A stretch of DNA of 32,000 nucleotides. Source: Nostoc punctiforme PCC 73102. GTDB taxonomy: Bacteria > Cyanobacteriota > Cyanobacteriia > Cyanobacteriales > Nostocaceae. Location: the NCBI RefSeq assembly GCF_000020025.1, contig NC_010628.1, forward strand, positions 5,010,001 to 5,042,000, in the 5' to 3' direction. The notes below the pieces were generated by a model. That model had not been told where the DNA came from, did no database searches, and saw nothing but the letters and a program-made list of their open reading frames with translations. The translations under genes and the position numbers were made by a program. Below are positions 11,730 through 31,370 of this stretch, piece by piece. How positions within the stretch are numbered: position 1 is the first letter of the stretch; the number at the start of each line of letters is the position of its first letter.

Positions 11730-11920
11730 ACGGGGACGAGCATCATAATGTTATAACGGCATCAGTCTAGATCCAAAATAGGGAACATCAATTGATGATT
11801 AATTGCTGGTGCCTAGAGAGAGTTAAACTTAGCTTCTAGAGCAAACCCTGATTAGACAAGGTTGATAAGCAATGCTAATGCCAGCACTGCTGATATTTTT
11901 AGGCAGGTGGGTCAAGAGTG

Positions 11921-13471
11921 ATGAATGAAGCTGACACCTCAAATAAGGGGGCTGTGATGGAATCCCTAAATTCTGCTAATTCGCCACAATCGGAGCAGGC
12001 GAGTTGTCCCTTTTACTCAGTTGTGCCTAATGACAATATGGCAGTTAAACAACTGCCACTCCTCATGCCGGCTGAAGATAGACAATTTTCAAAAGATACC
12101 ACCCAGCAGGACTGGGTTGCAGAGCCGGAAATCGGCAAGCAAGCACTTATTGATTCAGAATTTCAGAACCTGCTGGCATTGAACGAAGAATTGCGTGCAG
12201 CTAACAATAACTTGTATGAACAAGTAGAGCAGCTAAAAGACAACCTAGCTGAGTCTGAAAAGGTTTTGCAGTGGCAGAAAACGCGCTCTAGCGTTACTGA
12301 GTCGATGCTCAACCAACATACTCAGGAATTAGCTGCGGCTCAAGAACAGATAAAATCTTTATTTCAACAATTAGAAATTGCTGTACAAACTATTCAACGT
12401 CAGGAAATTTTCACTGATAGTTATAAAGCACAGCTACAAATTAGCCAGCAACGCCTTGCCCAGCTAGAGCGAGAATGTACGTTGTTACACACTAATAACA
12501 ACGAACAGTCTGAGCAGTTATTGCAGTCAGAAACTGTTTGTCGGGAGTTACGTACTAGGCTGATGCGACAACAACGTCAGACGCTGCAATTTAAAGCAGC
12601 TCTGGAAAAATGTTTAGATACATCGGTTCCTAGCTATGACTCTTTAGAAGATACTGCACAACACCCCAAAGACATAACTAGCGGACAAGGAAGATTTTCT
12701 AGAAAAGCTCGGTCTTTGTTTCCTAATGCCCAGCCAATTAAACCTTGGTCAGCAGAATCAGAATCATTGACTGAAAATGAAGATGATTCTTGGGGTGAAC
12801 CGTCAGCACCAATCCCATTCCAAAGAACTGAGCCGACTCCACCGCCATCATCTTCTTGGAACTGGTCAGTTAAAAAAAATACCCCAAAAGCAGCAGAACC
12901 TCCTGCTCCCTTTCCAAAAATTGACGATTCCCCAGATACACCTGAAGCTGTTTCAACTTCGGGCTCATCCAATTTAGATCAGCAATTAGATAGTCTCATC
13001 CAAATGTTTTTCACTTCCCAGCCTCCATCTACATCACCACCGCCTACTGCAAAAACAGATGTGGATGCTAATAATGCCCCTGTCTGGGAGACTTTGGCAA
13101 CAATTATAGAAGACGATGAAAAAGTAGAAAATCAACGGGAGAAGGAGTTGGAGGCAGAAATTAATCCCCCTGTAACTACCTCTACTTCTTGGACGACAGA
13201 TTCTGTACTTTCACCAGCCAATAACTTACTGCTGTCTTCTACCTCCTTCCACACTGAGCCGCCTATTGGAGAAGCTGAAGATTACTGGTCAGAAGTTTCT
13301 CAATTGTCACAGTTGGAATTGTCAGAAAATGATTTTTCCTCAGAGTCATTAGGTGATAACACCAATGACGGTAATTCACCTTCACCTGTGGTTTATCCCC
13401 AACGTCCACCCAAGGGGCGTAAGTCGTTGGCATCTGTGGAACTACCGAATTTTCGCCCCAAGAGTCAATAG
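11921..13471 (+). CDS. Hypothetical coiled-coil protein with Pro/Ser/Thr/Glu-rich disordered C-terminal half
   Basis: 516-aa ORF (GTG 11918 / ATG 11921). Residues ~75-230 are heptad-like and Q/E/L-rich (LLALNEELRAANNNLYEQVEQLKDNLAESEKVLQ...). The C-terminal half is low-complexity (PPPSSSW, PPSTSPPPT). No enzymatic motif is visible. Confidence 0.7.
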   Translation: MNEADTSNKGAVMESLNSANSPQSEQASCPFYSVVPNDNMAVKQLPLLMPAEDRQFSKDTTQQDWVAEPEIGKQALIDSEFQNLLALNEELRAANNNLYEQVEQLKDNLAESEKVLQWQKTRSSVTESMLNQHTQELAAAQEQIKSLFQQLEIAVQTIQRQEIFTDSYKAQLQISQQRLAQLERECTLLHTNNNEQSEQLLQSETVCRELRTRLMRQQRQTLQFKAALEKCLDTSVPSYDSLEDTAQHPKDITSGQGRFSRKARSLFPNAQPIKPWSAESESLTENEDDSWGEPSAPIPFQRTEPTPPPSSSWNWSVKKNTPKAAEPPAPFPKIDDSPDTPEAVSTSGSSNLDQQLDSLIQMFFTSQPPSTSPPPTAKTDVDANNAPVWETLATIIEDDEKVENQREKELEAEINPPVTTSTSWTTDSVLSPANNLLLSSTSFHTEPPIGEAEDYWSEVSQLSQLELSENDFSSESLGDNTNDGNSPSPVVYPQRPPKGRKSLASVELPNFRPKSQ

Positions 13472-13624: not shown

Positions 13625-13673
13625 GACCAATTACCAATAACCAATAACCAATAACCAATGACCAATGACTAAT
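13625..13673. repeat. Tandem heptamer array (NACCAAT x7)
   Basis: gaccaat|taccaat|aaccaat|aaccaat|aaccaat|gaccaat|gactaat. The last unit contains the stop codon (13669-13671) of the minus-strand oxidoreductase gene. Confidence 0.85.
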
Positions 13674-15840
13674 TGAGAATCCTTGCTTCTGACTTCGGGA
13701 TTACGGCTTCTGGGTTTGTCTTTGCTACTTGAGAGCGCGATCGCGGTTTGCCTGTGGCGATCGCATAATTAATCGCCAATAGCCACAGCCACAAGCCAGG
13801 ATTTCGGGGTTCTAACCAAAAACCTACCCGGTTTAAGAAGCGCCCAAACCAGGGGCTTAGCAAAGCGCTAACGAGAGCATGACGACCGAAATTGAAATAA
13901 CTACCAAGCCATCGCATTAAATCTCTAGGCCCAGCTAGTTCCCAAATCCATAAAAGTAAGGCAGGATTTTTCCTAGCGGCTTTGAGTGCTAGGCGATTAA
14001 AGGTTAACCAATCACACCTATCTTTGATAAAGTTATCTGCTACTTCTTGGGGTTCATCTGCTAACAATCCAAAGAAGGTGTTGAGCATAGAGTTAATGCG
14101 CTGGGGTGGTAAGAATTTCCCAGTGGGTACCATCATGCCTTTGGAAAATAGCCAAGTCACGGAAACATTGCTTTGATAAGCTCGAATTTGGTTCAAGTGG
14201 CGGAAACTCAACAAGTCATGTTTGAGAGCAGTATCCAACAGTGTTGTTAAGCGCTCTAAGTTGCGAACTAGCGAACCAAAACCGGTGAAGACGAGGGGAG
14301 ATTGAAGTGATGCCGCATCACCGATCGCAATCAATCGATCGAAGGCAACTGTGCGATCGCTACTTCCTACACTAAAATGCCCTGGTATATACCCAAATGT
14401 CGGCTTCTTCCACACCAATTTGTCCATATCGCACCTGCGATACTCTGGCAAAATCGTGAAAAAGTCCTCGTACATCTCTAGCAAAGAACCAGGATTTTCA
14501 GCATTGACTTCATGGTAATGAAATAAATAAATCGTCAATTCATCATCTGCTGCGGGAAACAGTTCCCAAATTAACTGCCTTCCCCGCGAAATATCCCCAT
14601 GACTATAAAGAACGTCCCCGTATTGCGAATCCCATACTCCCGGCTCAAATCCGCTCTCAATTGCCGCACCTACTGTTGGGCATACGCTATCAAAGGCACG
14701 ACCACCATTTAACTGCCAAGCGATGGGTGAGGCAGTTCCCATTGCATCTATTAGCAGTCTTCCACTTACTTGTTTTTCAACCTGACTAGGTAAGTGCTTG
14801 ACTTGCAACAGAACTTGTGATATATCAATATCTGCACGCATAAATTCTGTTTCATCCCAGATTTCGCCGCCTGCCGCTTGCAGCTTTTGCCCACACATTT
14901 GGAGCCATTTTTCGGAATCTAAGCCTAAATTTAGGACTGTGGGTGTGTGCAGAACGGGCGATCGCAGTTTGGATGGATTGTTCGCATCAAAAAACTTATT
15001 GAATCCATCTTTGTATTCCCTAGCAATGATGGTTTCTAACTCAGCGGGGGTGACTAAACCCAGGTTAACCAAGCTTTGAATCTCATCGCGAGAAATATTC
15101 CATTCTCGGTTCATCCGGCCAAAGGGCATTCGTTCCACCAGCAGGACTTTATATCCTAGTTTTGCCATCAATGCTGCATGAATCGCGCCTAGTGCGCCGC
15201 CGATATAAATCAGGTCGTAAGTAGGGGATGAGGAGGATGATGAAGATATTATTTTTCCATCTCTCCCTGCTCCCCTGCTCCCCTGCTCCCCTGCTCCCCT
15301 GCTCCCCTGTCCCCTGTCCCCTCGACTGGAAAACACAACTTGACGCGGCTGCTGCGGATTTCGTACTCCTTCGCGCCACCGTTGTTCCCACCAGTAGGCA
15401 CGTGTTAGATCGTATTCACCGTTGGGCATTTTCTGAAAATACTTGACGGTGAGGGGGTAAGCAGAGGCTAAAGCGGCAAAAATCGATTGTTGGGATAAAT
15501 CAATCGGTGGTGGTTCCGGGTAATGATGCGGAAAACGGCTTCTAATTTCTTTGGTTAGGCGTTGCAGAATTTGTCCCTCACAGGGAAAGGGTTGTTCTGC
15601 CCAACGAAACACTTTCAGATAGGTAGTTCGTTGCACTGACCAAACAAATACCGAAAGTTCTACAGGCAAGTTTTCGGAAAGAGCCGCCCCAGCAGGTGTC
15701 TTAGCACTGGGTATTTTGAGGCGAAAGCCTTCCAAAGTAAGCACTTTTTCTCCATTTCCAGGTTCAAAATCTGTTTGTAGCCAGCTACGCACAGTTTCTA
15801 TATCTGGAGTTGGAACTTCTAAATAAAGGATTTCTCTCAT
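13669..15840 (-). CDS. FAD-dependent oxidoreductase, CruA/CruP-like (putative lycopene cyclase family) with repeat-derived in-frame insert
   Basis: 723-aa ORF with the Rossmann dinucleotide-binding motif YDLIYIGGALGAIHAALMAKLGYKVLLVE. Size and architecture (N-terminal extra domain, flavoprotein core, hydrophobic C-terminus) resemble cyanobacterial CruA-type proteins. That family assignment is from memory, not from a search. Confidence 0.75.
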   Translation of the reverse strand: MREILYLEVPTPDIETVRSWLQTDFEPGNGEKVLTLEGFRLKIPSAKTPAGAALSENLPVELSVFVWSVQRTTYLKVFRWAEQPFPCEGQILQRLTKEIRSRFPHHYPEPPPIDLSQQSIFAALASAYPLTVKYFQKMPNGEYDLTRAYWWEQRWREGVRNPQQPRQVVFSSRGDRGQGSRGAGEQGSRGAGRDGKIISSSSSSSPTYDLIYIGGALGAIHAALMAKLGYKVLLVERMPFGRMNREWNISRDEIQSLVNLGLVTPAELETIIAREYKDGFNKFFDANNPSKLRSPVLHTPTVLNLGLDSEKWLQMCGQKLQAAGGEIWDETEFMRADIDISQVLLQVKHLPSQVEKQVSGRLLIDAMGTASPIAWQLNGGRAFDSVCPTVGAAIESGFEPGVWDSQYGDVLYSHGDISRGRQLIWELFPAADDELTIYLFHYHEVNAENPGSLLEMYEDFFTILPEYRRCDMDKLVWKKPTFGYIPGHFSVGSSDRTVAFDRLIAIGDAASLQSPLVFTGFGSLVRNLERLTTLLDTALKHDLLSFRHLNQIRAYQSNVSVTWLFSKGMMVPTGKFLPPQRINSMLNTFFGLLADEPQEVADNFIKDRCDWLTFNRLALKAARKNPALLLWIWELAGPRDLMRWLGSYFNFGRHALVSALLSPWFGRFLNRVGFWLEPRNPGLWLWLLAINYAIATGKPRSRSQVAKTNPEAVIPKSEARILN
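15224..15322 (-). repeat. G-tract hairpin element, copy d, inside the CDS and in frame
   Basis: Sense strand: ggggaca x2, ggggagca x4, gggagagatggaaaaataatatcttcatcatcctcctcatcccc. It is translated as RGDRGQGSRGAGEQGSRGAGRDGKIISSSSSSSP, immediately before the FAD-binding fold. Confidence 0.8.
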
Positions 15841-16000: not shown

Positions 16001-16234
16001 ATGAATTATCCCATTCCAGACAGTCCCCAAGAAATTTTTGCCCTGCGACAACAGCCAATTGATGAAGAACTCGTTGCAGCTGCGATCGCTGGAGTCATTA
16101 AAATTGTCCGCGCTCAGGGTCAATCTTTGGAAGAATTAACCGCTCAGTTGCTAGCAGACGATCCAATGCTGGATCAGCAACAACGTCGCTGGTTGAGCCA
16201 ATTAGTTGTCCAATCCTGGGAAAAGTTCTCCTAA
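16001..16234 (+). CDS. Small hypothetical protein (77 aa)
   Basis: ATG-initiated ORF in an otherwise ORF-free gap, with non-repetitive, helical-looking sequence (…EELVAAAIAGVIKIVRAQGQSLEELTAQLLADDP…). No motif is recognised. Confidence 0.5.
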   Translation: MNYPIPDSPQEIFALRQQPIDEELVAAAIAGVIKIVRAQGQSLEELTAQLLADDPMLDQQQRRWLSQLVVQSWEKFS

Positions 16235-16582
16235 AACCTTGCATAATATAAAGAAAATTTTTGGCGCAGCATTAGATATTTAGGTTTGCAACTAAATATT
16301 GGGAATATTGGCGTTGGCTTTGCCCGCCGTAGGCATCGCATTTTAGGTATAAGAGTAACAATAATTGTCAGTATGGAATTGGCAATTGACTTGCTATTTT
16401 GGCATTCATGGCGCAGAAGCCACTAAATTAACCATATCAGCGTTTTACGTTGCTAAAGAATTTTACAACGTTCTGAAAGCGAAAGACCTCTGCTTTACAG
16501 CCTAAGTCTCTTTTCGGGTTCATCCTTATGCTTTTGATCGCCGCCTCGACACCTTAGCGGAATAAATCTTTTTGGCACATAG

Positions 16583-16606
16583 CTTAGTTAGCGATCGCTA
16601 ACTAAG
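16583..16606. repeat. Perfect 24-bp palindrome centred on HIP1
   Basis: cttagttagcgatcgctaactaag is its own reverse complement. Confidence 0.9.
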
Positions 16607-17024
16607 TGAGTAGAAATAAATACAACTATGTTACAAAAAGTAAATATATTTAAAACCCTTAGCAATTAAGAATAAAAAAGGAAAAACGACGACCTTAAAT
16701 AGTTAAGTTTATTTGTGCAGACTATCTACTACTATTTATGAACATTCTTTATTTAACATGAGACTCATGAGCAAAAAGATGAATTTGGAGTATTATGATA
16801 TCTCTTACTAACTATTCTTCTCTCTTCAAAACTATTTAGTAGAGAACAAAATCCAACAAACAATTAGTAAATATTTGCATTGCAAACCTTATATAGAAAG
16901 AATTAGCGGCTTTTATCTCAGGCGATTACTGTGAAATAGACCGTATTTCATCAAACTTAATATTCAATAAATATTCTTTAACAACGAGTGCAAAAATCAT
17001 TTTTCCTGAAATCATTTATAAAGG

Positions 17025-17030
17025 TATAAT
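17025..17030 (+). promoter_or_regulatory. Candidate -10 box for the nucleotidyltransferase gene
   Basis: TATAAT lies 26 nt upstream of ATG 17056, with AGGAA at 17045-17049 as a possible RBS. The -35 region (tttcct) is poor. Confidence 0.3.
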
Positions 17031-17055
17031 CACAAAATAAAATCAGGAATAAACT

Positions 17056-18381
17056 ATGACAAAAGCACAGGATAAAACTCTAGATGCACGTAACCGCATC
17101 GTTGAATCAGCTAATCGTTTAGGGGTTCAACTCAATGAGCTAGAATTGGAACGCTGGATGAATTCCATTACTGAGGCGACAGGCGACAGCGATATTGTGG
17201 TGGATAAAGACACAGGTGTCTTTGGACACAAAGTCACCATGTTGGATTTCGACCCGCAACAGCTGGCACGGTTTCGCGCCATTGGCAAAATCGTAGAATT
17301 TGACGACATCCCTGGTGTTGTGGAAACGGCATTGGCGCTCTCTGGTTCAGCGGCTCAATCCAAGATTCAAACTTACCCTGGAGACTGTGACTATTTCGAG
17401 CGAGTGAATATCATTGCACCCACCCGCACCGAAGCCTGCGAGATTCTTGCTAAAATAATGCGCGAGAAGGCGCTCAACAGCTTGTCCGGTTCAAATTACC
17501 AGTTAATTGAGTTGAAATTTGGTAGTTATCCCCAAGAGGTGATTCGGGGAGAACAGACCATGCGAGCAGGTTCACCAATTAGTTGGCTACCCAATGATAT
17601 TGCTGCTGGTCAGATCGAAGCAATCGATGAAAAAGGAAATCCTGTAGTTATTAAGTGGGATTCTATAGCACAAGACCCAGGTTGGTGCAAGCTAGATTGG
17701 GTGATTGCCGACGCGGTACGCGGTCAGTTGTCCAATGCCAGTAATATGTTGGATGTCACCTGGGAAGCACCAGATGGTGTCATCACTCCACTAGACGGCT
17801 ATCTGGACGGCTATTTCCAGGAAGTTTACTTGGATGCTGAATCAGCCCCAATTTTTTCCAAGCTGGTGAAGCAGGTCTCCACTGATGTCATGGATGATTA
17901 TGTGGCGCAATTGGAAAAGGAAGTCAAGAAATGTGTTAAGGGCGAGAAACTCAACTACGGCAAAGCAGCCAAGCGCCTGTACAACATCTTCCGACTGAAC
18001 GGGCGTTATGAAGAAGCAGCTTTTTTGCGTGAGTTGTTCGATGAACCCGCGGCACTCCTCTATCAAGTCCATGCCCTAGTGCGAACTGTCCAAGAAGCTA
18101 GGGACAAGAGTAGTGTCTTTGATATCGAGAGCATTCTTAATCAGACGGATGAACTGATCGTCTCGGTCGTCAAGGTCTTGGAGGGTGAAGAGGAGTTAGA
18201 AATCGTGCGTCATTTGCTACGCTTATATCGTAGTTTGTGCCGCCAAGAATCTGGCACTCCCCTTGGTTCCGAAGTAGAAATAGCCCAGGCGGAAGTGATG
18301 AAAATAGTCAACAATTTCTTCTATGAGAAGATGACGGCGTTACCTACCATTAAGGCTTACATCGAAGGTACTCAGGTATAG
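17056..18381 (+). CDS. Pol-beta superfamily nucleotidyltransferase-fold protein with C-terminal helical domain (function unknown)
   Basis: 441-aa ORF. It carries the signature hG[GS]x9-13DxD as ALALSGSAAQSKIQTYPGDCDYF (G97-S98, D110, D112; nt 17344-17391). A candidate third carboxylate strand is CKLDWVIAD (D214). The C-terminal ~150 aa are helical. Confidence 0.75.
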   Translation: MTKAQDKTLDARNRIVESANRLGVQLNELELERWMNSITEATGDSDIVVDKDTGVFGHKVTMLDFDPQQLARFRAIGKIVEFDDIPGVVETALALSGSAAQSKIQTYPGDCDYFERVNIIAPTRTEACEILAKIMREKALNSLSGSNYQLIELKFGSYPQEVIRGEQTMRAGSPISWLPNDIAAGQIEAIDEKGNPVVIKWDSIAQDPGWCKLDWVIADAVRGQLSNASNMLDVTWEAPDGVITPLDGYLDGYFQEVYLDAESAPIFSKLVKQVSTDVMDDYVAQLEKEVKKCVKGEKLNYGKAAKRLYNIFRLNGRYEEAAFLRELFDEPAALLYQVHALVRTVQEARDKSSVFDIESILNQTDELIVSVVKVLEGEEELEIVRHLLRLYRSLCRQESGTPLGSEVEIAQAEVMKIVNNFFYEKMTALPTIKAYIEGTQV

Positions 18382-18413
18382 AGCAAGATGCTCGGTTTCT
18401 CAAAGCAGTAAGG

Positions 18414-18456
18414 GATTTCCGATAACAATGATCGGGCTTCGTCGTTATCGGAAATC
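18414..18456 (+). terminator. 13-bp perfect stem-loop after the nucleotidyltransferase gene
   Basis: gatttccgataac - 17-nt loop - gttatcggaaatc, starting 33 nt after the TAG stop (18379-18381). It lies between convergent genes. Confidence 0.45.
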
Positions 18457-18472
18457 TGTTACAAAATCTTAT
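18433..18472. repeat. Direct repeat copy 1 (3' side of the exonuclease gene)
   Basis: cgggcttcgtcgttatcggaaatctgttacaaaatcttat. A 20-nt identical core, ttcgtcgttatcggaaatct (18438-18457), also occurs at 19131-19150. Confidence 0.8.
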
Positions 18473-18497
18473 AAGTGCGATCGCATAGCTATCTTAC

Positions 18498-19055
18498 TTA
18501 ACGCTGTAGATTCGCTTGCAAAAGATTACAGAATAACTTTCCTTGCTGAATGGCATCATCCAAGGCAATGTGAGCCAATGGAAGATTTTCTAACCATGCA
18601 GCAGGTAGATTATCCTTTCCAGATTCGTTGTAGCTTTGTTTTAAGAATGCCATCGCATAGGAACGGATATCCAATGCCGAAAATTTAAAGGGGCTATCGC
18701 CCACAAAATTTATCAAGTACCAGTAGACAAACATAAAGTCATAGGCGGCTGGATAGCCAACAAAGATCGGTTTTCCTGGTAAAGCTACAAGCCAGGAGTG
18801 GTAAGACTTCATGACTTCTACAGGGGGCTGGGGGTCGGCTCTACTAGCTGCCCAAGCATCTGGTTGTTCTGCCCACCATTTCATAGTTTTGGGATGTCCT
18901 TGGGCTCCTGGCAAGGTTTCTAAATTAGCTGTAAAAGTCCCAACCAATTGTTTGTCTGCGGTATACGCAGCTGAGGCAAGACTAAGCATAGAATGGGGCC
19001 CAGGGATAGGGCCATCCGCTTCTATATCAGTGCTGACGTAGATTTCGATTGTCAC
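18498..19055 (-). CDS. DEDDh-type 3'-5' exonuclease (Rv2179c-like small exoribonuclease family)
   Basis: 185-aa ORF with Exo [10 protein letters not shown], Exo [15 protein letters not shown] and Exo [13 protein letters not shown] (H-x4-D). Confidence 0.85.
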
Positions 19056-19124: not shown

Positions 19125-19165
19125 CGGGTTTTCGTCGTTATCGGAAATCTATGACAAAATCTCAC
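19125..19165. repeat. Direct repeat copy 2 (5' side of the exonuclease gene)
   Basis: cgggttttcgtcgttatcggaaatctatgacaaaatctcac is ~85% identical to copy 1 and lies 70 nt upstream of the exonuclease start codon. Confidence 0.8.
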
Positions 19166-19292
19166 AGATGCAACCAAGTACAGCACTTCTGATTAACAAA
19201 CCGCCTTCTCTGTGAAAGGCTTCTACTTTCAGAGACGCTAACGCGTAACTCTTACTCTGTGGGAAGGTGAAACGCCTATGCGCTAAAAAAAA

Positions 19293-21047
19293 TTACATTC
19301 TCTCCAACACCTGAATTCCCAACAAAGATAATCCCAACTTCAAAGTTCTAGCAGTCAAATCACATAAAACCAACCGAGATGTTCGCTGCGGTTCCTCGGC
19401 TTGTAGTATGGAACAGCGATCGTAGAATTGGTTAAACTTCTGACTCAGTTCAAACAAATACTCACATAAACGATTGGGTAGCAAGTCTTGCTCTACACTA
19501 CTAATAACTTCATCCAGTTGAAGTAAATATTTTGCCAGTGCTAATTCTGTTTCATGCTGCAACAAAACGGCATTATTTCCCAACTCTTTAAAATTAATAT
19601 CACCCTTGCGGCTAATCCCATGAATCCGCGCATAAACATATAGCATATAAGGCGCAGTATTACCTTTGAGATCCAGCATTTTGTCGTAGCTGAAGATGTA
19701 GTTACTGGTGCGATTTTGGCTTAAGTCTGCATACTTAACTGCACTAATTCCAACTACCCTAGCAACTTCATTAATAAATTCTTCAGTTTCTTGACGTTCT
19801 TCTTTTTGTAATCTAGTTTTTAGGTCAGCATGGGCATGAGAAACAGCTTCATCTAATAAATCCCGCAACCGCACAGTATCCCCAGAACGAGTTTTAAATT
19901 TCTTCCCATCTTCTCCTAACACTAACCCAAAGGGAACATGCACTAATTCCACATCATCGGGAATCCAGCCAGCTTTGCGTGCTACTTGGAAAAATTGGGC
20001 AAAGTGGTTTCCTTGTCCAGCATCTGTTACATAAATTATTCGCTTTGCTTGATCCTGCTGAATCCGGTAGCGGAGGGATGCTAAATCTGTCGTGGCGTAG
20101 TTATAGCCGCCATCTGATTTCTGCACAATTAAAGGTAAAGGTTCACCTTCTCTATTTGTAAACCCTTCTAAGAAAACGCATTTTGCGCCCTGGTTTTCTA
20201 CCAGTAATCCCGATTTTTCTAAGTCTTCCACAATACCAGATAATAAAGGGTTGTAGAAAGATTCACCGCGTTCGGTTAACTTGATATCCAGCAATTCATA
20301 AATTACTTGAAACTCTCGCCGTGATTGTTCGCACAACAGTTTCCAAGCATGAAGTGTATCTTCTGCACCTGCTTGTAATCTGACAACTTCTTGGCGTGCT
20401 GTTTCTTGAAAAGCTGTATCTGTATCAAAGCGTTGTTTGGCTTTGCGGTAAAAAGAAACTAAATCACCAATATCTAAAGCATTAGCGGTGGTAAGCGCAT
20501 CTGGGTAAACTTCCCGCAGATAGGCGATTAACATTCCAAACTGTGTACCCCAATCACCGACATGATTTAACCGCAGCACATCGTGTCCTTGAAATTCTAA
20601 AATCCGGGCGATAGAATCACCAATAATGGTAGAACGCAGGTGTCCAACGTGCATTTCTTTGGCAATATTCGGACTGGAAAAATCCACATTTTCCCGCTTC
20701 GGCGTTTTCGCGGCTGGAACTCCTAACCGGGGATCAGCTTGAATATCGTTCAGTTGTGCTTCTAGATATGCCGTTTTCAGTTTCAGATTGATGAACCCTG
20801 GCCCAGCAATTTCCGGTGGTTCGCAGATTTCGGATACATCTAGTTTCTCAACGATCGCCCCTGCGATCGCTCTTGGTTGCTTGCCTAACTTTTTACTTAG
20901 GGATAAAGCCACATTCGCCTGATAATCACCAAATTTAGGATTACTGGCAGAAACCAAAATTGGATCTACTCCCGCGAAGTCAGCCCCAAAAGCTGCGACT
21001 AAAGCCTGTTCAAGCTGAACTTTTAGTTTTTCTTGTGTAGCGTTCAT
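19293..21047 (-). CDS. argS: Arginine--tRNA ligase
   Basis: 584-aa ORF. It has the class I HIGH motif ([14 protein letters not shown]), a [10 protein letters not shown] block (the MSTR/KMSK-equivalent), and the typical ArgRS N-terminal and anticodon-binding regions ending in ...GIQVLERM. Confidence 0.97.
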
Positions 21048-21242
21048 ATATAAATTTTATCTGGGAGAGAGAGAATGTAGCTCTGGAAAAGCTTGATTAT
21101 TAACTTTAGCATTTCATTTTGAGCCACTCGATTCATGAGGCGATCGCTCACTACCACAAATAGGAAATCTTATTGACTTTTGACTTCTCAATTAGCGACT
21201 CTATCTGTAACAGAAATTTTCCCTGTAGAGATAAGTAGTAAC

Positions 21243-21425
21243 ATGAAAGTACGTGATGCGATCGAGCGAGTGGAAGCTGATGGTTGGTATCTTGATAGAA
21301 CTAAAGATAGTCATCAACAGTTCAAGCATCCTGATAAACCAGGTTTAGTTACAGTTCCAGGTAAATTCTCTGACGACTTAGCCCCTGGTACTCTCAGTAG
21401 TATTTGGAGGCAAGCACAATTATAA
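21243..21425 (+). CDS. hicA: Type II toxin HicA (mRNA interferase)
   Basis: 60-aa product MKVRDAIERVEADGWYLDRTKDSHQQFKHPDKPGLVTVPGK... is typical HicA. The longer TTG-initiated ORF from 21180 is unlikely. Confidence 0.85.
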   Translation: MKVRDAIERVEADGWYLDRTKDSHQQFKHPDKPGLVTVPGKFSDDLAPGTLSSIWRQAQL

Positions 21426-21436
21426 GGAGAACGGCA

Positions 21437-21661
21437 ATGCATTACGTAGTGGTGATTGAAAAGGCGGATAGTAATTACTCTGCTTATGTGCCTGATTTAC
21501 CAGGTTGTGTAACTACAGGTGCAACCTTAGAAGAAGTCAAGCAGATGATTGCAGAAGCTATTGAATTTCATATAGAAGGAATGCTAGAAGATGGTTTACC
21601 TATTCCTAAACCTACAAGCATCGCTCATGAGGTTGAAGTTGCAAACTACAGCAAAACATAA
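21437..21661 (+). CDS. hicB: Type II antitoxin HicB (UPF0150 fold, short form)
   Basis: MHYVVVIEKADSNYSAYVPDLPGCVTTGATLEEVKQMIAEAIEFHIEGMLEDGLPIP. AAGGAG lies 7 nt upstream of ATG 21437. The gene starts 11 nt after the hicA stop. Confidence 0.85.
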   Translation: MHYVVVIEKADSNYSAYVPDLPGCVTTGATLEEVKQMIAEAIEFHIEGMLEDGLPIPKPTSIAHEVEVANYSKT

Positions 21662-21797: not shown

Positions 21798-23295
21798 ATA
21801 GAGAAGATGAAAGCATCAAGTTGTGTTGAAGCTTTCCTCCTGCCGCCCAAGCAAGGCACAACTCACGAAAACGATCGCCGCGCACCTCAAAATTTGGGTA
21901 CTGATCGAAACTCGCACAGGCTGGAGATAGCAACACCACAGGCGCTTGATACTCCTTGGCTAATTCCGCCGATCTGGGAACTGCCCTTTCCATAGTTTCC
22001 ACAATTTCGTAAGAATAATACCCCACTTCTTGCAGGCGTTGAGCAAATGCGGGTGCAGCAGAGCCAATCAATAATACAGCAGCAGCTTTGGTTTGGATTT
22101 GTGCTAGCCAGCCAGTATCATCTCCTGCTTTGGCTTCTCCACCAGCAATTAAAATCGCTGGACTTTTCACAGATGCTAAACCAACTTCGGCCGCATCGTA
22201 GTTGGTGGCTTTGCTGTCGTTGATGAAATCAATACCTTCCCAAGTGCAGATATGCTCCAAACGATGAGGAACGCCGGGGAATTCCTGAATCGCACGTGCG
22301 ATCGCATCACGATTAATTCCCGCTAATCGTGCCGTTGCTACTGCCATCAAGAGATTTTGCTGATTATGTTCTCCCACCATCCGCAAAGTAGATACTTTCA
22401 CAATCGGTTCTGGTGCTGAGGTTGCAGTCAATTTTTCCACAACCCAGCCGTTCTCGATGTAAAAGCCTTTTTCGCTAATCAGGAAATCTTTTCCTTTGAC
22501 ACTTGTCCAATAGGCATTAGGCCAAGCACTTAAACCTAACTGGCTCAAATAGGCATCATCGCCATTGAACACTTGCAACTCTGACTGACGCAACAGCTTT
22601 GCTTTGATGTTGTAATAGTTCTCTAAAGTCTTATGCCGACTCAGATGATCCGGTGTAAAAGTCGTCCAAACACCGATACGGGGTGCAAGAGAACTGGAAG
22701 ATTCTATTTGATAGCTGCTAACCTCCGCAATCACCCAATCGAGCGAGGGGGATGAGGAAGAATTTACTTCCCTATCTCCCCCTGCTCCCTGCTCCCTGCC
22801 CCCTGCCCCTCTCCCGCTCCAAGAAAGGGCAACTTCACAAGCGGCGTAGCCAATGTTACCGCAGGCGGGCGCGTCTAATTCTGCTGCTTGAAAAATGGCA
22901 GCAATTAAAGCTGTGGTAGTAGTTTTACCGTTAGTACCTGTAATTCCTACCCAAGGTAGCGATGCCTGCGGCTGGCTGCGCCAACGCAAATTTCGCCAAG
23001 CGAGTTCCATTTCCCCAATGGTTTCAATACCTAATTGGCGTGCCTTGATTAATACGGGAATATCCCAAGGCACGCCAGGACTAACAACTATTAATTGGGG
23101 TAAATTATCACCATTTAATTCTAGGGATTGGCCTAGTTTAACGGTTATTTGCTCGGCAGCGAGTTCTTGTTGTTGTTGTAGGAGGGTTTTGGAGGTGTTG
23201 CCATCACTCAGCTCTACCTCCCAACCTTCCCGTTTCAACAATCTCGCCGCAGCAACACCGGACTTTCCCAATCCAATAACATGAGCTTTGGACAT
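21796..23295 (-). CDS. murD: UDP-N-acetylmuramoyl-L-alanine--D-glutamate ligase
   Basis: N-terminal [17 protein letters not shown]-loop [16 protein letters not shown] and EVSSYQIE blocks, and C-terminal domain RLE...[12 protein letters not shown] 23295 is preferred over TTG 23304. Confidence 0.95.
22747..22818 (-). repeat. G-tract hairpin element, copy e, inside murD and in frame
   Basis: Sense strand: agcgggagaggggcagggggcagggagcagggagcagggggagatagggaagtaaattcttcctcatcccc. It is translated as [24 protein letters not shown], between the GNIG block and the SSYQIE strand. Confidence 0.8.
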
Positions 23296-23380: not shown

Positions 23381-25534
23381 CTACAGATTTTTGACGATCG
23401 CACCAAAGTCAGCTAAAACACGAGCATGATTCCGAACCAATCCCAGTAAGTGTAATCGATTACGCTTAATTTCTGGATCGGAGTCCATAACTAAAACGCT
23501 ATCTGGCCCATCAAAGAAGTTACTAACTGTTGGAGCAATTTTTGCTAATGCTGCTACTAACAGTTGATAATTTCGTGTCTGCTGTGCTGTTTGAGTTTGT
23601 GGTACTGATTCGATTAAAGCATTATACAAAGCTTCTTCAGAGGGCTTTTGGAATAATTCTGGACGAACTACAGATGTCGGTTCTAGCTGTTTTGTATCCA
23701 AATCACCTTGGGCAGCTAATCGTGTGGAACGGTTAACGGTTTCATAGATGTTATCTAGAATACTGTCGCTACGGATTTGTTGTAAGTACAAGGCGCGATC
23801 GCGGACATCCAATAAATCCTTTAACGTCCGTTCTGTGTATTCTGGGTCATTTTCTCCCAAAACTGCATTTACTAAATCGTAATCAATCTGCTTTTCTTCT
23901 TGCAGTAAAGTGCGGATGCGTTGTAAGAAAAACTCTTGCAATGCTGTGGTTAATGATGCCCGATCTTTTTGATATTTCGCGGCAAAATCTGTTGCTATTT
24001 GCGCCAACAAATCATCTAAATTTATCGGCAAATTATAAAACCAAGTAATTTTAACTACAGCATTAGCAGCCCGACGCAAAGCGAAGGGATCGGAGGAACC
24101 AGAGGGAATTAAACCTAAACCAAAGATACTTACCAAGGTATCTAATCTATCTGCCAAACCGACAATTTGGCCTGTGAGTGTTTCGGGTAAATTGTCACCA
24201 GCTCCCGTTGGCAAATAATGTTGATAAATTGCTTTTGCTACTTCGGCATCTTCACCACTCGCTAAGGCATATTTTTCTCCCATAATGCCTTGCAATTCAG
24301 GGAATTCATACACCATTTGAGTTACCAAATCTGCTTTACACAATAAAGCAGCACGTTGGATTTTTTGGCTTTGATTTTCAGCTAATTTTAATTGGGTGCT
24401 AATTTGCTCGGCAATCTTGACTACTCTATCTATCTTGGTACGCACCGAACCCAATTCTTCTTGGAAGGTGACTTTTTCTAACTGGGGTAAAAAGCTATCT
24501 ATTGGTTTAGTTAAATCAGCTTCGTAGAAAAATCTGCCATCAGCTAATCTGGCACGAATTACCCTTTCATTTCCGACGGCAACAATATCTGATTTTTTGG
24601 GATCGCCGTTAGAAATGGTGATGAAATTGGGCAATAATTCTTGCTCAGAACTACCTGGTTTGAATACAGGGAAATAACGTTGATGAGTTACCATAACTTC
24701 AGTAATTACTTCAGTTGGTAATTCCAAAAATTCTGGTTCAAATTTACCAACAACTGTAGAAGGATATTCTACAAGGTTGGTTACTTCTGCTAACAAATCG
24801 GGGTAAATGACTGTATACCCGCTTAAACTCTCTGCTACTGCCTTTACTTGCTCTTTGATGAGATTTTCCCGTTCTTCGGGGTCAACGGTGACATAAGCAG
24901 ACTTGAGGGCGGTAACATAATCAGTAGCTTGAGCGATTGTCACAGGTTCAGGATGTAAGACACGATGACCTTGAGAAATGCGATCGCTCTGAATCGTTTT
25001 AGAACCATTCACCAATTCCAACGGTAGCACCGTCTCATCTAACAAAGCTACCAGCCAGCGAATTGGTCGAGAAAACCTCCCATCCCCATCTCCCCAACGC
25101 ATTAACCGCTTACCTTCTAAACCCCAAATCCACTCTTGAACAAGTTCTGTCAAAATTTCCGCCACAGGACGGCCAGGAATTCTTTTTTGCACAAAAACAA
25201 ATTCCCCTTTGTCAGTGGGGCGAAGGAAGAGTGCATCTAGTTCCACACCTTGCTTTTTGGCAAAGCCTAATGCTGCTGCTGTTGGCTGACCATCTTTAAA
25301 GGCAGCTTGGGCGGGAGGCCCTTTGATTTCTTCTTCTCGATCTGCTTGCTGGGATGGTAGACCTTTAATCAATACCGCTAAACGCCGGGGAGTACCGTAC
25401 ACTTGGACGCTTTCACCCTGAAGGCTGTTTGCTTCCAAACTTTGGGGAATGCGTTCTCGCCATTGTATTAAGGCATCACTGAGAAAGCTTGCAGGTAATT
25501 CTTCTGTACCAACTTCTAATAGAAACGCAGGCAT
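23381..25534 (-). CDS. glyS: Glycine--tRNA ligase beta subunit
   Basis: 717-aa ORF starting [17 protein letters not shown], with GlyS-typical blocks throughout (PRRLAVL, HQRYFPV, DPFALRR). Confidence 0.97.
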
Positions 25535-31286: not shown

Positions 31287-31370
31287 CTATGCCCAATGCC
31301 CCATTCCCCATGCCCAATTCCCCATGCCCAATGCCCCAATACCTAATGCCAAATACCCAAAGCCCAATTT
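31287..31370. repeat. Tandem heptamer array, 12 units (CCATGCC/CAATGCC-type)
   Basis: ctatgcc|caatgcc|ccattcc|ccatgcc|caattcc|ccatgcc|caatgcc|ccaatac|ctaatgc|caaatac|ccaaagc|ccaattt. Confidence 0.85.

Follow-up and report, generated by a model that had tools for sequence, protein, structure and literature searches.

According to our analysis, the gene at positions 17056 to 18381 (+ strand) of a 32,000-nucleotide stretch of the Nostoc punctiforme PCC 73102 genome (NC_010628.1, positions 5,010,001 to 5,042,000; hereafter the window) encodes a 441-amino-acid enzyme of the Pol-beta fold, here called the NT protein, which very probably forms a functional module with the Cap18-like exonuclease encoded next to it. 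The extent, strand and length of this open reading frame (ORF) in the ORF list agree with those given in an earlier note made from the letters of the window, and its product matches ACC82383.1 / WP_012410350.1 / UniProt B2J6H8, labeled "hypothetical protein" in the database, at 100 % identity. The partner gene (18498 to 19055, − strand) encodes a 185-amino-acid DEDDh exonuclease, assigned by profile, PDB and sequence matches to a divergent class A of the Cap18 or "Exo" family known from cyclic-oligonucleotide-based antiphage signaling systems (CBASS). Our tentative reading, to which we give slightly less than an even chance, is that the NT protein makes and the exonuclease hydrolyzes a nucleotide messenger with a 2'-5' linkage, the module itself containing no effector.

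The nucleotidyltransferase (NTase) fold was assessed on an AlphaFold2 model built on a 96-sequence alignment, which reached a mean predicted local distance difference test score (pLDDT) of 87.5 and a predicted template modeling score (pTM) of 0.86. In this model the core runs from helix 67-80 through strand 89-95, G97-S98 with helices 97-105, strand 110-120 opening with D110-x-D112, and helix 124-141 to strand 148-157; it is preceded by two helices and a beta-hairpin and followed by a beta-rich insertion and then by a 180-amino-acid helical domain (helices 261-440). The Pol-beta superfamily signature, hG[GS] after strand 1 and, 9 to 13 residues further on, [DE]h[DE]h opening strand 2, is thus present in the NT protein. 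A Foldseek search of the PDB returned three significant matches only, 4AMS, 4XUL (with GTP) and 4AMQ, with E values of 1.5e-7 to 8.5e-6 and TM scores of 0.44 to 0.58, all three being the Megaviridae "new nucleotidyl transferase" Mg662 and its relatives. Against BFVD, 15 matches were obtained at E<1e-4, with TM scores of up to 0.60, and all of them were giant-virus or virophage proteins and none a phage protein; they include Zamilon (V6BPH6, TM 0.60, E 3.4e-13), a "V21 virophage-like protein", Mavirus, YSLV5, Tupanvirus and Klosneuvirus. The likeness extends over the full length at a probability of 1.00, with query and target TM scores of 0.50/0.58 for 4AMS and 0.60/0.60 for Zamilon V6BPH6. The reading of the NT protein as a Pol-beta-type NTase fold holds, since a confident model and significant structural matches to a nucleotidyl transferase point the same way. 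The placement in this superfamily and the all-helical C-terminal domain, both proposed in the earlier note, stand on the modeled structure and, for the superfamily, on the invariant motif as well; for the N-terminal region of about 90 amino acids, which the note had called unrecognizable, no match was found. Placement by curated sequence profiles fails instead: Pfam, NCBIfam and PDB sequence and profile searches with the NT protein gave no NTase match even at E<=10, no PADLOC model matched it or four distant relatives, and none of 4AMS, 4AMQ and 4XUL came up at E<=10 when the profile of the 96 sequences was run against all PDB chains.

The predicted catalytic signature, G97-S98-x11-D110-C-D112, lies at 17344 to 17391 (+ strand; residues 97 to 112), where the earlier note had read an ALSGS-x11-DCD motif; the longer LALSGS-x11-DCD string occupies residues 93 to 112, and the sequence reads L95-S-G97-S98-x11-D110-C-D112-Y. 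The conservation foreseen for its four key residues is borne out, G97, S98, D110 and D112 being invariant in alignments of 28 and of 96 diverse homologues; in subfamilies of 30 to 45 % identity S98, D110 and D112 are still invariant and G97 is at least 90 % conserved. About 35 further residues are invariant in the 96 sequences, among them D233, D247 and the group K303/R307/Y309/N310/R313. The downstream acidic strand KLDWVIAD is indeed present at residues 212 to 219; of its two aspartates, D214 is variable and D219 conserved to at least 90 %, and D233 and D247, which are invariant, lie further on. Candidates for a third catalytic carboxylate are D219, D233, D247 and E152, the last of these on strand 148-157 and also at least 90 % conserved. 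The invariant basic and polar patch K303, R307, Y309, N310 and R313 maps to 17956 to 17997 (+ strand), on helix 301-314, the first conserved helix of the C-terminal domain, and its R, Y, N and R residues are invariant in the distant subfamilies also. By analogy with NTases of the poly(A) polymerase (PAP) and oligoadenylate synthase (OAS) type, this patch may constitute an NTP- or phosphate-binding surface.

The NT protein is no "orphan", as it had been called, because it has more than 6,157 homologues at E<=1e-3. Homologues 59 to 95 % identical to it occur across Cyanobacteria, Chloroflexota (Anaerolineae), Actinobacteria, Acidobacteria, Planctomycetes, Tectomicrobia and Armatimonadetes, at least 594 matches were found in GTDB species genomes, and an exhaustive HMMER search of 1.84 billion representatives yielded 536 clusters at 50 % identity, which take in full-length relatives down to 30 % identity as well as two long fusion proteins. 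Neither a Pfam domain nor an informative name was found among the 240 homologues listed, which agrees with the suggestion that the protein is of an undescribed type, and our literature searches retrieved no paper describing this bacterial NTase family; those directed at Mg662, 4AMQ/4XUL/4AMS and virophage NTases likewise returned nothing describing it. No homologue was found in IMG/VR viral contigs or, by tblastn, in INPHARED phages and PLSDB plasmids. By sequence, then, the NT proteins appear as a large, unannotated and unusually well conserved bacterial family. In some Nostocaceae, tandem NT paralogues about 79 to 86 % identical to the window protein lie 5' of a single exonuclease gene (L008, 8552-9886 and 10001-11320; L018, 8519-9844 and 9977-11326; P0037/P0045 of Nostoc sp. 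TH1S01), and P0045, the sole one of them included in an alignment, retains the GS...DxD motif.

The convergent position of the DEDDh exonuclease gene had been reported correctly in the earlier note, which took it as a mere landmark; the exonuclease is instead the functional partner of the NT protein, conserved together with it, and the best pointer to what the NT protein does. Of 83 loci, 68 have a gene for an exonuclease of this family next to the NT gene: it is upstream and co-directional in 45 of these pairs (two with overlapping called ORFs, and many with 4-bp overlaps), convergent in 22, which belong to cyanobacteria and Planctomycetes, and downstream and co-directional in one. In a Pseudonocardiaceae contig and in Entotheonella, for example, the exonuclease gene directly precedes the NT homologue and has the same orientation. 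The remaining 15 loci have no adjacent exonuclease gene, and three of them end at a contig edge. When the neighbors in 160 loci were compared, the exonuclease was the sole family that recurred across phyla, the others reflecting lineage-specific housekeeping synteny. Moreover, within cyanobacteria the pair is found in differing genomic contexts, and the pairwise divergences of the NT proteins and the exonucleases are correlated (Spearman 0.72, 1,830 pairs). Adjacency in 68 of 83 loci, persistence in differing contexts and correlated divergence together establish the two genes as a co-inherited functional unit.

No third conserved gene of the module was found among the neighbors. GlyS, DnaG, RpoD, LeuS and ComEC were considered as members and rejected, their proximity being lineage-specific housekeeping synteny. 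A Metallophos_2 phosphoesterase gene lies 5' of the exonuclease-NT pair, on the same strand, in Entotheonella only (L002, 8703-9344; L003; L004). In three Nostoc loci (L010, L012 and L013) the exonuclease is 97 % identical to that of the window and the NT protein only 84 %, a discordance which suggests that one gene of the pair has recombined or been replaced.

The exonuclease of the window matches the PADLOC model PDLC00753 ("Effector/Exonuclease") over its full length with E=1.3e-28, and its sole PDB sequence match, at E=1.1e-15, is 7T2S, the structure of Escherichia coli Cap18 (PMC11981726). It is 30 % identical to Cap18 of E. coli upec-117 (E=1e-20). The partner exonucleases fall into two classes, in both of which D10, E12, D106, H162, D167, P16 and P122-F123 are invariant. 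Class B, from Chloroflexota and Planctomycetes, scores 226 to 231 bits on the PADLOC CBASS model, vs 300 for true Cap18, with which it shares about 43 % identity, and retains N100 and V/I58. In class A, which comprises the exonucleases of the window, Actinobacteria, Acidobacteria and Entotheonella, these pocket positions are occupied by P and E/Q (P102 and E63 in the window), and the score is about 100 bits. The Pfam RNase_T and Rv2179c-like models give only 19 to 29 bits on the partner exonucleases, vs 98 to 231 bits on the Cap18 model, and on these sequence comparisons the partner is best placed in the Cap18 family.

Cap18 was named by Blankenchip et al., who reported that catalytically dead Cap18 has no effect on phage protection in E. 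coli (bioRxiv 10.1101/2022.01.04.474952). More recently, Exo/Cap18 enzymes of CBASS from three species were found to have no DNA or RNA nuclease activity and to hydrolyze selectively 2'-5'-linked linear dinucleotide intermediates and 2'-5' oligoadenylate, and Exo/Cap18 was described as a regulator that sets the activation threshold of the cyclase and not as an effector (bioRxiv 10.1101/2025.03.04.641389). Our literature searches found no paper on a Cap18-like enzyme outside CBASS, nor on bacterial pairs of OAS-like and DEDDh proteins.

On this background we infer an NTase activity, a 2'-5' linkage of its product, a regulatory logic and a biological role for the pair. The NTase, by means of a two-metal site formed by G97-S98 and D110-x-D112 and of the helix carrying K303/R307/Y309/N310/R313, would condense NTPs into a short oligonucleotide, linear or cyclic, with at least one 2'-5' phosphodiester bond. 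The exonuclease would hydrolyze this product or its linear intermediate and so set a signal threshold or terminate the signal, as reported for CBASS Cap18/Exo, and the receptor or effector would be encoded elsewhere, outside the two-gene module. Two distant relatives link the NT domain to a beta-propeller: P0160 (1067 amino acids) carries a PQQ-type propeller fused to it, and in Deinococcus peraridilitoris (L085, 8001-12238) the NT gene overlaps a gene for a 962-amino-acid PQQ beta-propeller protein, with genes for PrsW and trypsin-like proteases upstream and no exonuclease gene. Such a sensor-like linkage fits a regulated, signal-generating enzyme. A further distant relative, P0248 (1291 amino acids), combines AbfB, FBA, C-lectin and PLAT domains and has a eukaryote-like look.

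Several observations weigh against this messenger reading. The 2'-5' specificity of the Cap18 family rests on one preprint. At the two pocket positions named in that preprint (N97 and V55 in VcExo numbering) the window exonuclease carries substitutions, N to P102 and V to E63; because of these and of its 30 % identity to Cap18, the specificity of this class A enzyme may differ from that of Cap18. No profile or structural similarity of the NT protein to CD-NTases or OAS was found, and for its nearest structural neighbor, Mg662, no described function was found in the literature. Identities of 59 to 75 % across phyla, combined with housekeeping-type neighborhoods, are unusual for immune signaling, and no effector or cyclic-nucleotide receptor gene recurs nearby in the 160 loci. 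Finally, in a broader metagenomic sample, scanned with the alignment of one subgroup since an alignment of all distant subfamilies was too divergent, the exonuclease gene adjoins the NT gene in no more than 28 of 80 loci, and 27 loci with room on both sides have no such gene. The NTase can therefore exist without an adjacent exonuclease, and the linkage is strong in the clade of the window protein and not universal.

Among known systems, the best structural match is Mg662 with its giant-virus and virophage relatives (Foldseek E 1.5e-7 in the PDB and 3.4e-13 in BFVD, TM 0.5-0.6 over roughly the full length), which share with the NT protein the NTase core and the helical domain and of which one solved Mg662 structure binds GTP. 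However, identity to them is only 10 to 16 %, with no detectable sequence or profile similarity, their carriers are viruses of eukaryotes, and no exonuclease pairing is known for Mg662. As far as the model allows, the NT protein is thus structurally grouped with Mg662 and the virophage V21-like proteins. CBASS, as exemplified by CdnC-Cap7-Cap6-Cap18 of E. coli upec-117, resembles the module in setting a Pol-beta-fold NTase beside a Cap18-family DEDDh exonuclease, and the partner exonucleases keep the DEDDh residues, P16 and the PF motif of Cap18, those of Chloroflexota at about 43 % identity. Unlike CBASS, the module has no effector, HORMA/TRIP13 or E1/E2 genes, its loci lie outside defense islands, its conservation is much stronger, and its NTase is not a CD-NTase by sequence or structure. 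Alignment of the NT family profile with E. coli CdnC by hhalign gave a probability of 0.6 %, no similarity; the best match to a cGAS/DncV-like NTase (CD-NTase) in the Foldseek search of the PDB, 7X4A, ranked 28th (E=0.17, TM 0.18-0.25), NF90/NF45 and 7X4A appearing in the list only at E values of about 0.2; and no operon with a cyclic-nucleotide-activated effector was found in the 160 loci, in which only the exonuclease recurs.

Eukaryotic OAS and the 2'-5' phosphodiesterases (PDE12 and the viral 2',5'-PDEs) would share with the pair the logic of a synthase and a dedicated hydrolase, as far as the family of the partner indicates, but the NT protein has no match to OAS1_C or to any NTase-family profile, and the hydrolase of the window is a DEDDh enzyme and not of the EEP or 2H type. 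CCA-adding enzymes or PAPs acting with RNase T likewise combine a template-independent Pol-beta NTase with a DEDDh 3'-5' exonuclease; here, no significant structural or profile match was obtained, and the window exonuclease is much nearer to Cap18 than to RNase T. With the MNT/AbiEii proteins the NT protein has in common a minimal GS...DxD core, yet no profile matches and no HEPN or transcriptional antitoxin partner is present, and the protein is 441 amino acids long with large insertions and the 180-amino-acid helical domain. The resemblance to CD-NTases/SMODS, MNT/AbiEii-type toxins and OAS that the earlier note had drawn from the layout is not supported, the NT protein matching none of these groups in Pfam, PADLOC, profile or structure comparisons. 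We classify the NTase family and the NTase-Cap18 module as new, and the logic of nucleotide signaling as known.

Three other explanations of the pair were weighed against the messenger reading. It is improbable, in our estimate, that the pair is an RNA 3'-end module, in which the NTase tails RNA or tRNA in the manner of CCA-adding enzymes, PAPs or terminal uridylyltransferases (TUTases) and the DEDDh exonuclease trims it in the manner of RNase T. Template-independent RNA polymerases generally share this layout of an NTase core and a helical C-terminal domain, and the exonuclease weakly matches the Pfam Rv2179c-like 3'-5' exoribonuclease and RNase_T models, but the 98 to 231 bits obtained on the Cap18 model against 19 to 29 on these, the reported lack of RNA and DNA nuclease activity in Cap18-family enzymes (bioRxiv 10.1101/2025.03.04.641389) and Foldseek results in which CCA-adding, PAP and TUTase structures remain below significance all argue against it. 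Aminoacyl-tRNA synthetase genes do lie near the NT gene in three lineages, ArgRS and GlyS in the window (19293-21047 and 23381-25534), GlyS in Anaerolineae (L039-L081) and LeuS in a high-GC clade (L103, L111, L114, L116, L127, L139 and L151). This adjacency vanishes in other contexts, however, and is explained by insertion into glyS-dnaG-rpoD and leuS-comEA-comEC-holA clusters; because no synthetase gene is present in three further contexts (L168, L169 and L170), we deem it probably a coincidence and rejected it as a clue to function.

Less probable still is a minimal CBASS-like abortive infection system, in which a divergent cyclase would sense infection and the exonuclease would act as the effector, following the PADLOC label. 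The match of the exonuclease to the PADLOC CBASS model speaks for it, as do the raised third-codon-position GC content (GC3) of the NT gene, toxin-antitoxin genes and an integrase near some loci, and a patchy spread over phyla with high cross-phylum identity, suggestive of horizontal transfer. Nevertheless, the NT protein itself matches no PADLOC model, phage protection is left intact by dead Cap18 (bioRxiv 10.1101/2022.01.04.474952) and Exo is a regulator and not an effector (bioRxiv 10.1101/2025.03.04.641389). Furthermore, the neighborhoods consist mostly of housekeeping genes and not of defense islands, no homologue was found in the phage, IMG/VR and plasmid collections, and so strong a sequence conservation is atypical of defense genes. 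About equally remote, and if anything slightly more so, is an NTase that modifies a protein or a small molecule (by AMPylation, as an antibiotic-NTase type enzyme or as an MNT/AbiEii-like toxin) and has no more than a loose relation to the exonuclease. Such enzymes do share the minimal GS...DxD site, in a considerable share of loci the NT gene has no exonuclease gene beside it, and lectin, AbfB or beta-propeller domains are joined to the NT domain in distant relatives; yet no Pfam match to NTP_transf_2, AbiEii, KNTase or GlnE appears even at E<=10, neither a HEPN nor an antitoxin partner is present, and the co-evolving pairing with a nuclease of a nucleotide-signal family would be left unexplained.

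If the NTase does make a nucleotide messenger, the signal synthases that work with Cap18-type 2'-5' phosphodiesterases would include, besides the CD-NTases, a second lineage, present in hundreds of species and unusually well conserved. This would give a function to thousands of "hypothetical proteins", offer a first way into the function of Mg662 and the virophage V21-like proteins, which are still enigmatic, and place Cap18-like enzymes in action outside CBASS. The hypothesis lends itself to direct testing, since both proteins are small and soluble and N. punctiforme is genetically tractable. A wider proposal, which we consider rather unlikely, is that of a widespread chromosomal pathway that makes and degrades a 2'-5' messenger, a bacterial analogue of OAS with 2'-PDE that is independent of CD-NTases, uses an NTase lineage found otherwise only in giant viruses and virophages, occurs mainly in filamentous or complex bacteria (Nostocales, Anaerolineae, Actinobacteria and Planctomycetes) and serves perhaps physiology rather than classical abortive defense.

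Upstream of the NT gene lies an 821-bp spacer (16235-17055) that is AT-rich and without ORFs, as the earlier note had described, with 30.6 % GC between 16501 and 17000. In close Nostoc relatives conservation of this spacer is limited to the last 90 to 110 bp or so before the ATG, and the AT-rich tract is for this reason regarded as ordinary variable intergenic DNA. The conserved promoter-proximal block (16968 to 17055, + strand), with a TATAAT box at 17025-17030 and AGGA at 17045-17048, was kept in all six Nostoc loci aligned, including L005, in which the rest of the spacer is unrelated, and is the putative promoter of the NT gene. A scan with promoter and terminator consensus sequences gave matches not above the shuffled expectation, and an Rfam scan of the whole window, the long 5' spacer included, found no family.

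The suggestion that the gene belongs to a horizontally acquired accessory island finds thin evidence in the N. punctiforme genome. The absence of HIP1 sites from the gene, vs 34 in the 32 kb, was counted correctly but is not significant, because its expected number of sites is only 1.4 (P(0)=0.24), and five of the 18 ORFs have none; HIP1 depletion was thus rejected as a sign of foreign origin. As for the high GC content that had been noticed, the total of 47.4 % is equaled by two core genes, those for MurD (47.9 %) and a Mo-oxidoreductase (47.2 %), while GC3, at 49.3 %, is the highest of the 18 ORFs in the window, the remaining ones ranging from 27 to 42 %, and constitutes a mild compositional signal.

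The 116-bp convergent spacer between the NT and exonuclease genes holds a hairpin (18413 to 18458) with 13-bp perfect inverted-repeat arms at 18415-18427 and 18444-18456 and predicted folding energies of -37.4 and -35.8 kcal/mol on the two strands (z = -5.0 and -5.3). Relatives keep this hairpin 3' of the exonuclease gene (L005, L010, L012, L013, L051 and L168), and it is probably a bidirectional terminator or 3'-end element. In Cylindrospermum stagnale (L168, 7414-8628), an IS605 OrfB/TnpB (Cas12f-like) element is inserted between the NT and exonuclease genes, and the hairpin stays with the exonuclease gene. A 41-nt direct repeat, whose copies at 18438-18478 and 19131-19171 are 85 % identical, with 20 nt exact, and give two exact 20-mers in the window vs none expected, brackets the exonuclease gene; its first copy overlaps the 3' arm of the spacer hairpin. 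Both copies are present in L013 and the first only in L005, L010, L012, L051 and L168, and the repeat could be a shared regulatory site or the trace of a cassette insertion.

Elsewhere in the window, CCCTGCT(C) tandem repeats of 7 to 8 nt occur inside coding regions, at 15265-15322 (in a 723-amino-acid ORF) and 22780-22820 (in the MurD gene), where they coincide with Gly/Arg/Ser-rich in-frame inserts, e.g., ..GSRGAGEQGSRGAG.., and several other heptamer arrays, similar to short tandemly repeated repetitive (STRR) sequences, lie in intergenic DNA, for example at 13626-13674 and 31289-31368. A HicA/HicB toxin-antitoxin pair (21180-21661) is located between the ArgRS and MurD genes, and the syntenic Nostoc loci L012 and L013 have it too. 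The ORFs at 11918-13471 (517 amino acids), 13669-15840 (723 amino acids) and 16001-16234 (77 amino acids), without a Pfam match at E<=1e-3, are conserved upstream of the NT gene in the close Nostoc relatives L005, L012, L013 and L051.

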